Assembly: GCF_003334785.1 (NCBI RefSeq)
Contig: NZ_QOWV01000037.1
Direction: 5' to 3' (one strand)
DNA: 7,023 nt
Origin: Escherichia coli
Lineage (GTDB): Bacteria; Pseudomonadota; Gammaproteobacteria; Enterobacterales; Enterobacteriaceae
The position numbers and the translations under genes are program-made. The notes beneath the pieces are model-generated. The model ran no database searches and was not told the origin of the DNA. It saw only the letters and a program-made list of their open reading frames with translations. Of the stretch, positions 2,406 to 6,771 are shown one piece after another. Each line of letters begins with the position of its first letter. Within the stretch, counting starts at the first letter, position 1.

Positions 2406-4802
2406 ATGATGCACGAAAAGAACATCGCCCTGCTTTGTGATGAAGCCGACCGGCTTTTGCAACTGAATATCAATCTGCTCCGGCAAATGGTTGATGAGCC
2501 GGATGTGTTATCTGACAGTAAGAACGAAAACGGGCTGCTTTTTGATAAACGGAAAGCGCTGAAAAGAATTGAGGAGCTGGAGGGCGAACAAATCAAAACC
2601 GCCCGCAGGGAGATGGTGCTGGCTGTGGTCGGCACGATGAAGGCGGGCAAATCAACCACCATCAACGCCATTGTGGGGCAGGAAATTCTGCCCAACCGTA
2701 ACCGCCCCATGACCTCGGTACCGACATTGATCCGCCACGTTCCCGGAAAAACGGAACCGGTCCTCCATCTGGAACATATTCAGCCCGTCCGCAATTTATT
2801 AATCACACTGCAGGAAAAACTCGCCACCCCAGCAGGGCAGCAAGTCGCACAGTCCCTGCAGCAAACCGGGGATACCCGCGAACTACTGGATATTCTGGCG
2901 GATGATGTCTGGCTTAAAAATGAATACCACGGAGAAGACGAAATCTTTACCGGACTGGCATCGTTAAACGATCTGGTTCGTCTTGCTGCGGCAATGGGGA
3001 CTGAATTTCCTTTTGACGAATACGCAGAAGTGCAGAAACTGCCGGTGATCGACGTGGAGTTCAGCCACCTGGTGGGGATGGATACATGCCAGGGAACACT
3101 CACACTGCTGGATACCCCCGGCCCTAATGAAGCCGGACAACTGCAGATGGAAGTGATGATGCGGGATCAACTGCAGAAAGCCTCTGCGGTGCTGGCGGTG
3201 ATGGATTACACCCAGATGAACTCGAAAGCCGATGAGGAGGTTCGTAAAGAGCTTAATGCCATTGCTGACATATCAGCCGGCCGCCTGTTTGTGCTGGTCA
3301 ATAAATTTGATGAAAAAGACCGCAATGGCGATGGGGCAGATGCCGTACGCCAGAAGGTACCGGCAATGCTGAACAGCGATGTGCTGCCCTCCTCCCGCGT
3401 TTATCCTGGCTCCTCGCGCCAGGCGTACCTAGCTAACCGTGCGCTTCATGAGTTACAAAAAAACGGCACACTTCCTGATGATGAAGCCTGGGTCGATGAT
3501 TTTGTCAGGGAAGCCTTCGGTCGCATGAAAAAAGAATACGTCTGTAAAGACAGCGAACTGGTCACCGAAGGGGCGACAGACCTGTGGGAAGGCTCACTTA
3601 TCGATCAACTGATAACGGAAGTCATACTGAGTTCACACTCCAGAGCTGCGGCACTGGCGGTTGACTCTGCCGCCGCAAAACTGATGCAGAATGCAGAAAA
3701 TGTCAGCGAATATCTGTCATTACGCCATCAGGGGCTGCAACAAAGCATTCAGTCACTGCAGGCGCATATCTCCAGCCTGCTGGCAGATATCCGGGAAATC
3801 GCGGACTGTCAGAATAAGGTGACCGGTGATGTCAGAATGGCCATGGAGGAGATCGATGCTAAAACCCGGGAATTACTGACGGAGGTCTGCGCCTCACTGG
3901 AAGAGGAGCTGAATGCCTATTTCAGAAGCGGTAAACGCAAAGAACAGCAAATGCTGGAAGAAGAAGGCGCAGAACAACGCATATCGCAGCAGGGGATTAT
4001 TGGAAAAATTCGTGAGCAGTTTAGTGTCAGTGCCCCGGGCCATCATTCATGGAAACGAGACTTTGATCCGGACAGCCCCGAGATAAAATTCAGTGATCGC
4101 AGGGAAGCCCTTAAACTGATGACGCAAATCGAATCGACCGTGACTAGCCTGCACCGTGAGGCTGAAGCACAGTTCCGGCCTGAACTGGAAAAAATCGTCA
4201 GGGGTATCGAAACAGGTTTTCGTGGTACGGCCCTGTATGCCACAGAAAATATTGCCGGACGTATCAATGCCCGCCTGGAGGACGAGGGCTTCACTGTAAA
4301 AATCACTTTCCCGGCAGTCAGCCAGTTACAGACCAGGATCGCGGTAAAAACAAATCTGAGTGCGCTTATGGAGGAAAGAACTGAGACAGTCACCCGTCGC
4401 CGTCGGCAGAGTGGTTTCTGGGGAAAGATTTGTGGAGCGTTTGGCACCAGTGACTGGGGCTGGGAAAACTATAAGGAGAATGTGAGCCGCAGTGTGATCA
4501 ATATCAACTCGGTCAGGAAGGAAGTGATGTCACTGACCCGGGCATATTTCGGGGAGTTGCAGGCATCCATTGAGCAGAATATTAACCAGCCCGTCCGCCA
4601 GGAGATCGATGATTTTTTCTGTACATTCAGGGAAAAAGTCGAACAGCTACGTAACACACTCATTCAGAGCTCTGAAGATCATAAACGCGATCAGCAGGCA
4701 CAGGAGCAGCTTACGGAGCGCCTTCAGGCATTAAATGAAAGGGTTCCCGAGCTGATTACTGACAGTAAGGCGTTAAGGGAAGAACTGGAGACACTGCTGT
4801 GA
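2406..4802 (+). CDS. Bacterial dynamin-like protein (large membrane-remodelling GTPase)
   Basis: 798-aa ORF. G1 P-loop GTMKAGKS at nt 2631-2654 (aa 76-83); G3 DTPG at nt 3111-3122 (D236); G4 NKFD at nt 3300-3311 (aa 299-302). Long helical, coiled-coil-like C-terminal region rich in E/Q/L/R, as in dynamin stalks. AAAGGTGA at 2398-2405 upstream of tandem ATGs at 2406 and 2409. Confidence 0.9.
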   Translation: MMHEKNIALLCDEADRLLQLNINLLRQMVDEPDVLSDSKNENGLLFDKRKALKRIEELEGEQIKTARREMVLAVVGTMKAGKSTTINAIVGQEILPNRNRPMTSVPTLIRHVPGKTEPVLHLEHIQPVRNLLITLQEKLATPAGQQVAQSLQQTGDTRELLDILADDVWLKNEYHGEDEIFTGLASLNDLVRLAAAMGTEFPFDEYAEVQKLPVIDVEFSHLVGMDTCQGTLTLLDTPGPNEAGQLQMEVMMRDQLQKASAVLAVMDYTQMNSKADEEVRKELNAIADISAGRLFVLVNKFDEKDRNGDGADAVRQKVPAMLNSDVLPSSRVYPGSSRQAYLANRALHELQKNGTLPDDEAWVDDFVREAFGRMKKEYVCKDSELVTEGATDLWEGSLIDQLITEVILSSHSRAAALAVDSAAAKLMQNAENVSEYLSLRHQGLQQSIQSLQAHISSLLADIREIADCQNKVTGDVRMAMEEIDAKTRELLTEVCASLEEELNAYFRSGKRKEQQMLEEEGAEQRISQQGIIGKIREQFSVSAPGHHSWKRDFDPDSPEIKFSDRREALKLMTQIESTVTSLHREAEAQFRPELEKIVRGIETGFRGTALYATENIAGRINARLEDEGFTVKITFPAVSQLQTRIAVKTNLSALMEERTETVTRRRRQSGFWGKICGAFGTSDWGWENYKENVSRSVININSVRKEVMSLTRAYFGELQASIEQNINQPVRQEIDDFFCTFREKVEQLRNTLIQSSEDHKRDQQAQEQLTERLQALNERVPELITDSKALREELETLL

Positions 4803-5704: not shown

Positions 5705-6771
5705 GTACAGAAATGAAAACGGGGCTGGTGCTGTCCGGCGGCGGGGCGGTGGGCGCTTATCAGGCGGGAGTGGTTAAGGCACTGGCAGAGTGCGGCGCAC
5801 AGATCAGTATGGTCTCAGGAGCCAGTATCGGGGCTCTCAATGGTGCCATTATCACGGCCTCTCCCGATCTGTCAGAAGCCGCCTTACGCCTGGAGGCGCT
5901 CTGGGATCATCTGGGGAATAATCAGGTTCTGTCGGTAAACAGATCGGTTTACTTTTCATTGCTGAAAAAACTGGTTCAGGCCATGAACCTCTGCCAGATC
6001 CCCGGACGTGCGGGCGCACTGCTTACGACGCTTTTTCGCCATATATCGACAATCAACGGGTTCGACAATCCGATGATTCAGCCGCTGTTGTCAGATGAGC
6101 CCCTGACAGCGCTGATGGATCATTATCTTGATACAGATGCTCTGGCCGACGGGCTACCGCTGTACGTGTCGCTGTACCCCACAGAAGGAGGCATGCAGGA
6201 TATTATTGACTGCATTCGTGCTGAACTGGGTGCCGGAACCACGAAAAACGCTGTTTTTCAGCATATCCAGAGTCTGCCCCGCGGGCAGCAGAAAGAAGCC
6301 TTACTGGCGTCAGCCGCGCTGCCTCTGCTGTTCCGTCCCCGCGAGGTTCAGGGAACAATGTACGGTGATGGTGGGATGGGCGGATGGCGAAACAGGCAGG
6401 GGAATACTCCCGTGACGCCACTGGTGGATGCCGGATGCAATATGGTGATTGTGACGCATCTGAGTGACGGTTCTTTATGGGATCGTCGGGCTTATCCGGA
6501 CACCACAATCCTTGAAATCCGTCCCCGGAAAAGGTTGAAACAAATCGGGGACGAAGGCAAAAGTGGCGGTCTGCTCAGTTTTACATCGGCACATACCGAC
6601 GCCTGGCGTCAGCAGGGCTACGAGGACACGATGCTGACGATGGAGCATATCCGGAAACCGCTGGCAGCACGTCAGGCACTGACCCGGTCAGAGACGGTAT
6701 TGCAGAAAAGCCTGGAGATAACTGAAGGTGCAGATTCGGCACTGAGAAACGCGATGGCCCGGATTAAATAA
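5701..6771 (+). CDS. Patatin-like phospholipase (PNPLA family, Ser-Asp dyad)
   Basis: 356-aa ORF. Strong SD AGGGGGAGG at 5691-5699; ATG at 5701 overlaps the upstream stop (ATGA). Gly-rich oxyanion motif LSGGGAVGAY (aa 12-20); nucleophile elbow G-A-S-I-G with Ser42 at nt 5824-5826; DGG motif in MYGDGGMGG about 180 aa after the serine, the usual patatin dyad spacing. Confidence 0.9.
   Translation: MSTEMKTGLVLSGGGAVGAYQAGVVKALAECGAQISMVSGASIGALNGAIITASPDLSEAALRLEALWDHLGNNQVLSVNRSVYFSLLKKLVQAMNLCQIPGRAGALLTTLFRHISTINGFDNPMIQPLLSDEPLTALMDHYLDTDALADGLPLYVSLYPTEGGMQDIIDCIRAELGAGTTKNAVFQHIQSLPRGQQKEALLASAALPLLFRPREVQGTMYGDGGMGGWRNRQGNTPVTPLVDAGCNMVIVTHLSDGSLWDRRAYPDTTILEIRPRKRLKQIGDEGKSGGLLSFTSAHTDAWRQQGYEDTMLTMEHIRKPLAARQALTRSETVLQKSLEITEGADSALRNAMARIK

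Follow-up and report, generated by a model that had tools for sequence, protein, structure and literature searches.

We analysed a window of Escherichia coli DNA (7,023 nucleotides of contig NZ_QOWV01000037.1, the whole of this stretch being called the window) and in particular three co-oriented genes of its + strand, located at positions 2406-4802, 4799-5704 and 5701-6771. These genes code for a dynamin-like GTPase (gene 1), a protein of the RdcB/YjcZ family (gene 2) and a patatin-like phospholipase (gene 3), and are referred to here as the trio. An original prediction, made from the sequence alone, had described them as an operon of a dynamin-like GTPase, a partner protein and a patatin, carried by a prophage island and forming a candidate undescribed defence system. 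The three open reading frames (ORFs) were found at the coordinates given in that prediction.

Organization of the operon and its products

Examination of the two junctions of the trio showed a four-base overlap at each, as predicted. The GTG start codon of gene 2 (301 amino acids) lies within the stop of gene 1, in the sequence GTGA at 4799-4802, and the ATG start codon of gene 3 (356 amino acids) lies within the stop of gene 2, in the sequence ATGA at 5701-5704. No terminator-like site was found on the + strand between the trio genes, and the three genes are predicted to be translationally coupled. Gene 1 opens with two in-frame ATG codons, at 2406 and 2409, giving products of 798 and 797 amino acids, respectively, of which RefSeq takes the second. 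The start at 2409 seems preferable, since the AAGG ribosome-binding site (2399-2402) suits the second ATG better; numbering from 2406, as used here, puts K82 and T103 in register with the numbering of K-12 RdcA. This ribosome-binding site belongs to an intergenic region of 107 bp (2299-2405, + strand) that separates gene 1 from an Ag43 remnant, and in which neither a consensus sigma-70 promoter nor a terminator was found. At the other end, a terminator-like hairpin, CACCGCCACTGTGGTGGTG (stem-loop 6791-6809), followed by TTTTT, occupies positions 6791-6816 of the + strand and is likely to be the 3' end of the operon.

The product of gene 1 matched the Pfam profile Dynamin_N (3.7e-17). A motif scan located the G1 motif or P-loop GTMKAGKS at residues 76-83 (2631-2654, including K82), the G2 residue T103 (2712-2714), the G3 motif DTPG at residues 236-239 (3111-3122) and the G4 motif NKFD at residues 299-302 (3300-3311), all on the + strand. 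Residues G76-T84, T103, D236-E242, N299 and D302 were invariant across 23 sequences including K-12 RdcA, and K300 was conserved in at least 90% of them. The GTPase motifs G1, G3 and G4 are intact, as had been claimed, and the G1-G4 motifs with the Dynamin_N match place gene 1 in the dynamin superfamily by its G domain. BLASTP gave an identity of 32% with K-12 RdcA along the entire protein (E 9e-124), and the NCBIfam CrfC profile NF007368 matched gene 1 from end to end (positions 1-737 of 742) with a score of 556.8 bits. Because this score falls under the curated cut-off of 1146, gene 1 is a paralogue of RdcA/CrfC and not an equivalog. Its N-terminal region differs from that of K-12 RdcA at residues 28-62, and a regular expression for a QLxLF-like motif, taken as an approximate form of the N-terminal motif for binding the sliding clamp, had no match in gene 1.

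The AlphaFold2 (AF2) model of gene 1, with a predicted local distance difference test score (pLDDT) of 76.8, showed a G domain followed by a stalk of long helices (residues 399-529, 565-624 and 700-797), the tip of which bears a beta-hairpin. Foldseek searches with this model gave as top matches the full-length bacterial dynamin-like protein (BDLP) of Nostoc (2j69, 5.5e-13), SynDLP, IniA and mitofusins, with the LeoA structure (4aur) only at rank 42. A helical stalk and a BDLP-like overall fold are therefore what the model predicts for gene 1. The predicted beta-hairpin between the long stalk helices carries a Trp/Arg-rich tip motif, TRRRRQSGFWGKICGAFGTSDWGWENY, at residues 663-689 (4392-4472, + strand), where strands were predicted at residues 656-667 and 686-699 and a helix at residues 671-678. 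Its pattern, T-[RK]-x-RR-x4-WG-x2-C-x2-F-x-T-x-DWGWE-x-Y, was kept in 22 of the 22 patatin-linked dynamins and was mostly gone from K-12 RdcA, in which DWG alone is left. The hairpin sits topologically at the site of the membrane paddle of BDLP in the AF2 model, and the motif may serve to dock the complex, with either the inner membrane or the lipase as its target. Hydrophobic segments of transmembrane grade were absent from all three proteins (the maximum KD19 score of gene 1 was 1.16), which are predicted to be soluble.

Gene 2 matched the Pfam YjcZ profile (PF13990) over its whole length (1e-69, positions 1-272 of 272) and was 31% identical to K-12 RdcB (E 5e-39). This full-length match, together with a position directly 3' of a dynamin-like GTPase gene that it overlaps, assigns gene 2 to the YjcZ family, and RefSeq also annotates it as YjcZ/RdcB. 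The partner protein that the original prediction had left anonymous can thus be named, and the dynamin next to it is a full-length paralogue of RdcA/CrfC. In the structural model of gene 2, a long helix accompanies a C-terminal domain modelled with confidence, and comparison of the model with the PDB returned no specific relative.

Gene 3 matched the Pfam profile Patatin (PF01734) with an E-value of 2e-23. The three elements expected of a patatin were all located by the motif scan on the + strand: the oxyanion motif GGGAVG at residues 13-18 (5737-5754), the nucleophile elbow GASIG, of the form G-x-S-x-G, at residues 40-44 (5818-5832, with S42) and the D-G-G motif of the catalytic aspartate at residues 223-225 (6367-6375, with D223). 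G13-G15, S42 and D223 were invariant in 22 lineages, and the GxSxG/DGG dyad reported earlier is indeed intact. The nearest solved relatives of gene 3 by sequence were PlpD, VipD, ExoU and a CBASS (cyclic-oligonucleotide-based anti-phage signalling system) lipase, all of which aligned over the N-terminal 55 residues or so only.

Conservation and genomic setting of the trio

A metagenome scan with an alignment of the RdcB family, from which 80 loci with 42-100% identity were kept, showed that the dynamin, YjcZ and patatin genes were present in this order and on one strand in all loci with a long enough contig, gaps being found only at contig ends. The same order was intact in Pseudomonas, Methylomonas, Plesiomonas, Allochromatium and other enterobacterial chromosomes and in an Enterobacter IncFIA plasmid. 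Co-evolution was examined on 22 lineages dereplicated at <90% identity. The pairwise identities of the three proteins were correlated in this set (r = 0.89-0.91), and the junctions were overlapping or abutting (-1 to -16 nucleotides) in 20 of the 22 lineages between the dynamin and YjcZ genes and in 21 of the 22 between the YjcZ and patatin genes, with three lineages each having one spaced junction. The ratio of nonsynonymous to synonymous substitution rates (dN/dS) between E. coli alleles was 0.09-0.26 per gene. The three genes form one co-inherited, co-evolving module, which is under purifying selection and has kept its catalytic residues intact. The proposed conservation of the trio as a unit was thus borne out, and a merely accidental adjacency of the patatin gene is contradicted.

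Large junction gaps were seen in two lineages: in Methylomonas koyamae (L005), an inserted ORF of 99 amino acids without a Pfam match (9617-9916) separates the dynamin gene from the YjcZ gene, and in another lineage (L064) a gap of +105 nucleotides precedes the patatin gene. The synonymous divergence (dS) between E. coli alleles of the trio was 0.14-0.25 when positions 2406-6768 of the window were compared with L002, L012, L014, L017, L020 and L043. These values exceed what is expected for E. coli core genes and suggest old allelic lineages that circulate among islands.

The YjcZ/RdcB family is small, with 466 representatives after clustering at 50% among 1.84 billion proteins, and 110 of the 116 full-length representatives were nearer to the island type than to K-12 RdcB. 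The two most distant members examined (23-24% identity) were still within trios. A member that is 42% identical to K-12 RdcB belonged to a two-gene locus without a patatin gene and syntenic with that of K-12 (phn, yjdM). In one lineage without a dynamin gene, a DUF3944-YjcZ fusion was directly followed by a patatin gene. The survival of the YjcZ-patatin linkage in this lineage may point to the RdcB-like protein as the component nearest the lipase. The fusion protein itself (532 amino acids; L108, 8001-10630) overlaps the patatin gene and is located after parE-parC; a dynamin stalk remnant was considered for its N-terminal extension (P0302) and rejected (hhalign probability 0.3).

In a midpoint-rooted neighbour-joining tree, which is a simple one with few labelled leaves, the patatin-less K-12-type clade (9 representatives) was sister to the enterobacterial trio clade, and both were nested among 107 other representatives, with trio-labelled leaves scattered between them. 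The simplest reading of this nesting of the K-12-type clade within patatin-linked diversity is that the trio is ancestral and that rdcAB is a derivative without the lipase. The K-12 rdcAB pair thus appears, from these sequence comparisons, to derive from the trio by lipase loss. The core synteny phn-yjdN-yjdM-rdcA-rdcB-proP was found in K-12 and in another enterobacterium but not in the window, where the trio stands between the Ag43 remnant and island genes.

The cassette was present in 2613 of 5426 complete E. coli genomes (about 48%), mostly at 90-95% nucleotide identity, and the carriers included enterotoxigenic E. coli (ETEC), O104:H4 and O157 lineages. Four E. coli genomes, including ETEC TW10722, were identical over positions 2300-6820. 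The homology of most E. coli genomes with the window extended from about 2399, just before the ribosome-binding site, to about 6820, with the hairpin included. With its homology limited to the segment from about 2399 to the terminator, the trio behaves as a discrete cassette; a junction query found the exact intergenic sequence between Ag43 and the trio in 635 genomes only. Forty-six plasmids, from Escherichia, Klebsiella, Enterobacter, Citrobacter and Nostoc, also carried RdcB-family relatives, with 60-80% identity in 25 cases; in the plasmid examples listed (Klebsiella, Enterobacter, E. coli; 62.8%), the annotation places dynamin and patatin genes on either side of the relative. The module is mobile, passing from one kind of site to another among islands, plasmids and islets of the chromosome.

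Comparison of four different E. coli islands showed a fixed order of GTPase gene, Ag43, trio, small genes, DUF932, antirestriction, JAB, CbeA/CbtA and DUF4942 genes. One island adjoins cadC and the others lie at tRNA-Ile or tRNA-Ser; three end at a tRNA gene. Variable cargo, which includes haemolysin-related genes, CBASS, tellurite resistance and a type VI secretion system (T6SS), was located upstream of the GTPase gene. Since the trio travels with the island backbone in a fixed order, its description as occupying a variable cargo slot is inaccurate for E. coli. The prophage setting also needs revision: tblastn searches of 50,697 INPHARED phage genomes found no relative of the patatin, 2.9 million IMG/VR viral contigs contained no YjcZ/RdcB relative, and none of the three proteins matched a PHROG family. 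A phage origin, or a role as prophage cargo, was rejected because these three comparisons were all empty, and "prophage" is a historical label for these islands rather than a description of them.

The other features of the window correspond to the neighbours named by the original prediction, a prophage-type GTPase gene and a decayed flu gene. An intact ORF at 16-927 codes for the YeeP-like GTPase, and the Ag43/Cah remnant of about 1.07 kb at 1224-2298 is truncated and frameshifted; both are on the + strand. The N-terminal ORF of the remnant (1224-2093, 289 amino acids) matches profile positions 1-257 of 948, and its C-terminal piece (2059-2298, 79 amino acids) is in another frame. In O104:H4, a frameshifted Ag43 gene likewise stands beside an intact trio. 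The IsrC/IS102 small RNA (1044-1280, + strand; Rfam, 74.9 bits for a gathering score of 46) is flanked by the YeeP-like GTPase gene and the Ag43 remnant, a yeeP-isrC-flu layout that is presumably also that of CP4-44 in K-12. ETEC TW10722, which is otherwise near-identical, has its YeeP-like GTPase gene split by IS100 (L001, 13946-16778) and a full cah gene of 2.85 kb at the site of the Ag43 remnant; with its GTPase gene intact, the window belongs to a genome that is related to TW10722 but distinct from it. Two human-gut metagenome contigs (L009 and L010) code for an RdcB-like protein 100% identical to that of the window. About 95 bp past the operon terminator, a tiny ORF of the + strand (6903-6950), preceded by a GGGGAG ribosome-binding site, codes for a hydrophobic peptide of 15 residues, MKLLNILLAVVLTVR; it could be a small membrane peptide or else a chance ORF. 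Outside these islands, a very distant trio (24% identity; L105, 11151-16222) was flanked by DUF932, RadC/JAB and YqaJ genes. As DUF932 and RadC/JAB genes also accompany the trio in the CP4-44-like islands of E. coli, the trio may be a recurrent cargo of such integrative elements.

A possible GTPase-gated lipase and its alternatives

The K-12 homologues of genes 1 and 2 provide the basis for a functional model. The dynamin-like GTPase RdcA of K-12 is soluble; it forms dimers, binds RdcB and docks on the diguanylate cyclase DgcE at the MASE1 domain of this enzyme, and its T103D mutant is inactive while its K82A mutant is functional (Pfiffer et al., PMC6510439). The inactivity of T103D and the function of K82A indicate that the nucleotide-free form of RdcA is the active one and that GTP is inhibitory. 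The explanation that we favour, although we put its chances at no better than even, is that the trio is a self-contained and horizontally mobile conflict or abortive-infection module in which a GTPase gates a phospholipase. In such a module, the dynamin-like GTPase and its RdcB-like partner would form a nucleotide-state switch controlling the patatin. The GTP-loaded complex would hold the lipase off in the resting cell; phage infection or another insult would perturb or collapse the GTP pool, or otherwise flip the GTPase, and the complex would then license the lipase. The clade-specific Trp/Arg-rich tip may dock the complex at the inner membrane, and the licensed lipase would hydrolyse membrane phospholipids, leading to cell arrest or death as in abortive infection. 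The patatin, as a putative effector, is a reasonable killing arm. Lipases of this kind are typically latent and need a partner to turn them on, which is Rab5 for VipD (PMC9860323) and cyclic GMP-AMP for CapV (PMC12480259). The K-12 rdcAB pair would have lost the lipase and been rewired to DgcE. The original prediction had viewed the dynamin as a sensor of membrane perturbation, an idea that is less well founded than a nucleotide-state switch given that RdcA is a soluble, GTP-responsive switch (PMC6510439) and that the trio has no transmembrane-grade segment.

The genes found next to the trio are consistent with a defence function in several lineages. In a modest and non-random sample of loci, a WYL homologue flanked the trio in 11 of the 26 lineages for which 4 kb or more of surrounding sequence was available, outside E. 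coli and often at 40-500 bp from the trio; WYL/BrxR regulators co-localise with diverse defence systems (PMC9122601). In an environmental lineage (L096, 1-15312), the trio was part of a compact defence island, with the type I genes HsdR/M/S and a type IV Mrr enzyme before it and, after it, a JukA homologue immediately downstream (PADLOC 2e-40) and then a BrxR-type WYL regulator. In another lineage, the gene just upstream of the trio was a WYL gene and a VapC/PIN pair came just downstream. SymE was near the trio in one context, and in E. coli EC11 a CBASS operon was located 8 kb upstream. The trio of Allochromatium was found with a Uma2-family gene, a small ORF and a Fic gene between ileS and lspA (L090, 4302-14623); these two genes are normally adjacent, and the locus looks like a small variable insertion site.

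Dynamin / RdcB-family / phospholipase operons have been reported on two islands of the commensal strain MP1, where they were among the most up-regulated genes in Kapi1 lysogens (PMC12922286, 2026). Their proteins are about 30% identical to core RdcAB, and the authors, on up-regulation only, labelled them putative defence systems (PMC12922286). The MP1 operons, going by their published description, share the architecture of the trio. The system can be called undescribed in so far as PADLOC-DB v2.0 holds no named match to it, but a published study had by then proposed an operon of this architecture as a putative defence system (PMC12922286). The trio would be an RdcA/RdcB-type GTPase switch with a lipase output.

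Besides the size and choice of the sample of loci, several observations weigh against a GTPase-gated defence module. The E. coli-type lineage had no WYL gene, some lineages were in housekeeping or neutral contexts and one plasmid context was without defence neighbours, so that a defence-island setting holds for several lineages, among bona fide defence genes, and not for others. The absence of a named system matching the trio in PADLOC-DB v2.0, where matches were marginal and partial (LeoBC over 35 P-loop residues, E 4.7e-4; ZorA; CBASS phospholipase over residues 9-46, E 5e-4), is a further point, as is the silence on the trio in the main texts of two recent E. coli defence-discovery studies, despite its presence in about half of complete genomes. 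Our literature search found no experimental test of the trio (protection, toxicity, lipase activity or protein contacts), and mentions of its genes were annotations only, besides the MP1 transcriptome (PMC12922286). In gene 3, the oxyanion motif is GGGA[VI]G in the enterobacterial-type patatins (the window, L007, L008, L051-L053, L060 and L089) and GGGAKG in the other 14 lineages; a basic residue at this position is usual in patatins. An adaptor role for the RdcB-like protein is conjectural, given that K-12 RdcB bound RdcA only and not the target enzyme (PMC6510439). A further-reaching proposal, that the trio is a new class of abortive infection in which a dynamin-like GTPase guards the GTP pool or another infection cue and directly licenses a phospholipase, with RdcA/RdcB-DgcE as its domesticated remnant, is possible but doubtful.

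A function in membrane maintenance or remodelling seems unlikely. The dynamin-like protein would tether, fuse or repair the inner membrane, as does DynA of Bacillus, or promote vesiculation, and the patatin would supply lysolipids or clear damaged lipids, giving tolerance to stress or phages without suicide. A role in vesiculation has reportedly been proposed for LeoABC of ETEC. The predicted full-length BDLP/mitofusin-like fold and the conserved Trp/Arg-rich tip at the position of the paddle would suit such a function, and so would published work that ties DynA to membrane surveillance and to a delay of lysis after phage infection (PMC8844932, PMC12998192). RdcA, however, the closest characterised relative, is soluble and switches an enzyme without remodelling membranes, hydrophobic segments of transmembrane grade are absent from the three proteins, and a patchy, mobile distribution with WYL, restriction-modification and toxin-antitoxin neighbours fits housekeeping repair poorly.

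It is just as improbable that the trio is a selfish addiction or competition module, in which the lipase would be a toxin restrained by the GTPase pair that kills cells losing the island or plasmid, or would be directed at rival elements rather than phages. Addiction modules do not typically consist of three large proteins in stoichiometric coupling, one of them an active GTPase, and the association with WYL and restriction-modification genes points to defence islands. The cassette-like boundaries, the deep allelic divergence among E. coli copies (dS 0.14-0.25) and the occurrence on plasmids and tRNA-linked islands beside the toxin-antitoxin genes CbtA/CbeA, CcdAB, VapC and SymE are, on the other hand, what would be expected of such a module, which overlaps mechanistically with a GTPase-gated abortive-infection module and is hard to separate from it.

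The trio could finally be an island-borne second RdcA/RdcB system of cyclic di-GMP and biofilm control, modulating DgcE or another MASE1 protein in coordination with Ag43, with the lipase as an accessory output. We regard this as very unlikely, even though genes 1 and 2 belong to the RdcA and RdcB families, the trio always comes after an Ag43/Cah gene in E. coli and the interval from the Ag43 remnant to gene 1 showed no terminator. The loci examined outside E. coli (Methylomonas, Allochromatium and Pseudomonas contexts) had no Ag43 adjacency, and the trio was intact where Ag43 is decayed, in the window and in O104:H4. The invariant partner across the family is moreover the patatin and not a cyclase, genes 1 and 2 share only some 30% identity with RdcA/RdcB and the CrfC equivalog cut-off is missed. 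A secreted or T6SS effector was rejected, since T6SS genes were near the trio in two loci only, no secretion-system neighbour was consistent across lineages and the absence of a strongly hydrophobic segment or N-terminus in the three proteins counts against secretion.

If the trio is a GTPase-gated phospholipase module, a lipase gated by a protein GTPase would join the known bacterial triggers of membrane suicide, the YjcZ/RdcB family would gain an ancestral role and RdcA/RdcB-DgcE signalling would be an exapted conflict system. By analogy with RdcA, the T103D substitution would be expected to lock the system off, and K82A to leave it active or make it constitutively toxic. The latter expectation departs from the original prediction, in which a P-loop substitution was simply taken to be a dead mutant.

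Comparison with known systems

DynA resembles gene 1 in being a bacterial dynamin-like protein that has been experimentally linked to the outcome of phage infection; it has been tied to membrane surveillance and to delayed lysis after infection (PMC8844932, PMC12998192). Unlike the trio, DynA is coded by a chromosomal housekeeping gene with neither a lipase nor a YjcZ partner, and it binds and fuses membranes and delays lysis.

Eleos (LeoA/LeoBC), to which the original prediction had compared the trio, shares with it bacterial dynamin-like GTPases, a location on E. coli islands and a proposed membrane-related action. However, the window has a single dynamin gene without a LeoBC-type tandem, and gene 1 matched LeoBC over 35 P-loop residues only (E 4.7e-4) and did not match LeoA; the trio was not recognised by the Eleos profiles. 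To our knowledge, Eleos includes neither a YjcZ protein nor a patatin.

CBASS with a CapV effector has in common with the trio a patatin-like lipase with a Ser-Asp dyad, a likely membrane-degrading effector that is latent until a signal is received, and CapV is activated by cyclic GMP-AMP (PMC12480259). The trio operon differs in that it has no cGAS/DncV-like nucleotidyltransferase (CD-NTase) gene and no CapV-type lipase: gene 3 scored 15.7 bits with the NCBIfam model CBASS_lipase, for a cut-off of 200, and the PADLOC effector model matched residues 9-46 only. The predicted activator in the trio is a protein GTPase complex rather than a cyclic nucleotide.

A precedent for the activation step proposed for the trio is the patatin VipD of Legionella, a phospholipase A1 that the GTPase Rab5 activates (PMC9860323). 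In VipD the binding of a GTPase switches a patatin lipase on allosterically, and VipD was the second-best solved-structure match of the patatin profile, although the two proteins are similar only over some 55 N-terminal residues. VipD differs in being secreted, in acting as an effector in eukaryotic cells and in responding to a small Ras-like GTPase, whereas the GTPase of the trio is a co-encoded bacterial dynamin-like protein.

Since genes 1 and 2 are homologous to RdcA and RdcB, the closest known system is RdcA/RdcB-DgcE and not Eleos. Both K-12 proteins are full-length homologues (32% and 31% identity, respectively), their genes have the same order and a 4-base overlap, and K82 and T103 are at identical positions; the proteins are predicted to be soluble, with a dynamin-like G domain followed by a long helical region. 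The two systems differ in that the K-12 locus, fixed in its core position (phn-yjdN-yjdM-rdcA-rdcB-proP), has no patatin gene, while the module of the window is mobile, being found on islands and plasmids, and has a third, coupled gene for a patatin. Gene 1 does not reach the CrfC equivalog cut-off (556.8 against 1146 bits) and carries the Trp/Arg-rich tip motif that is lost in RdcA, and the output of the system in the window is presumably a lipase rather than a cyclase.

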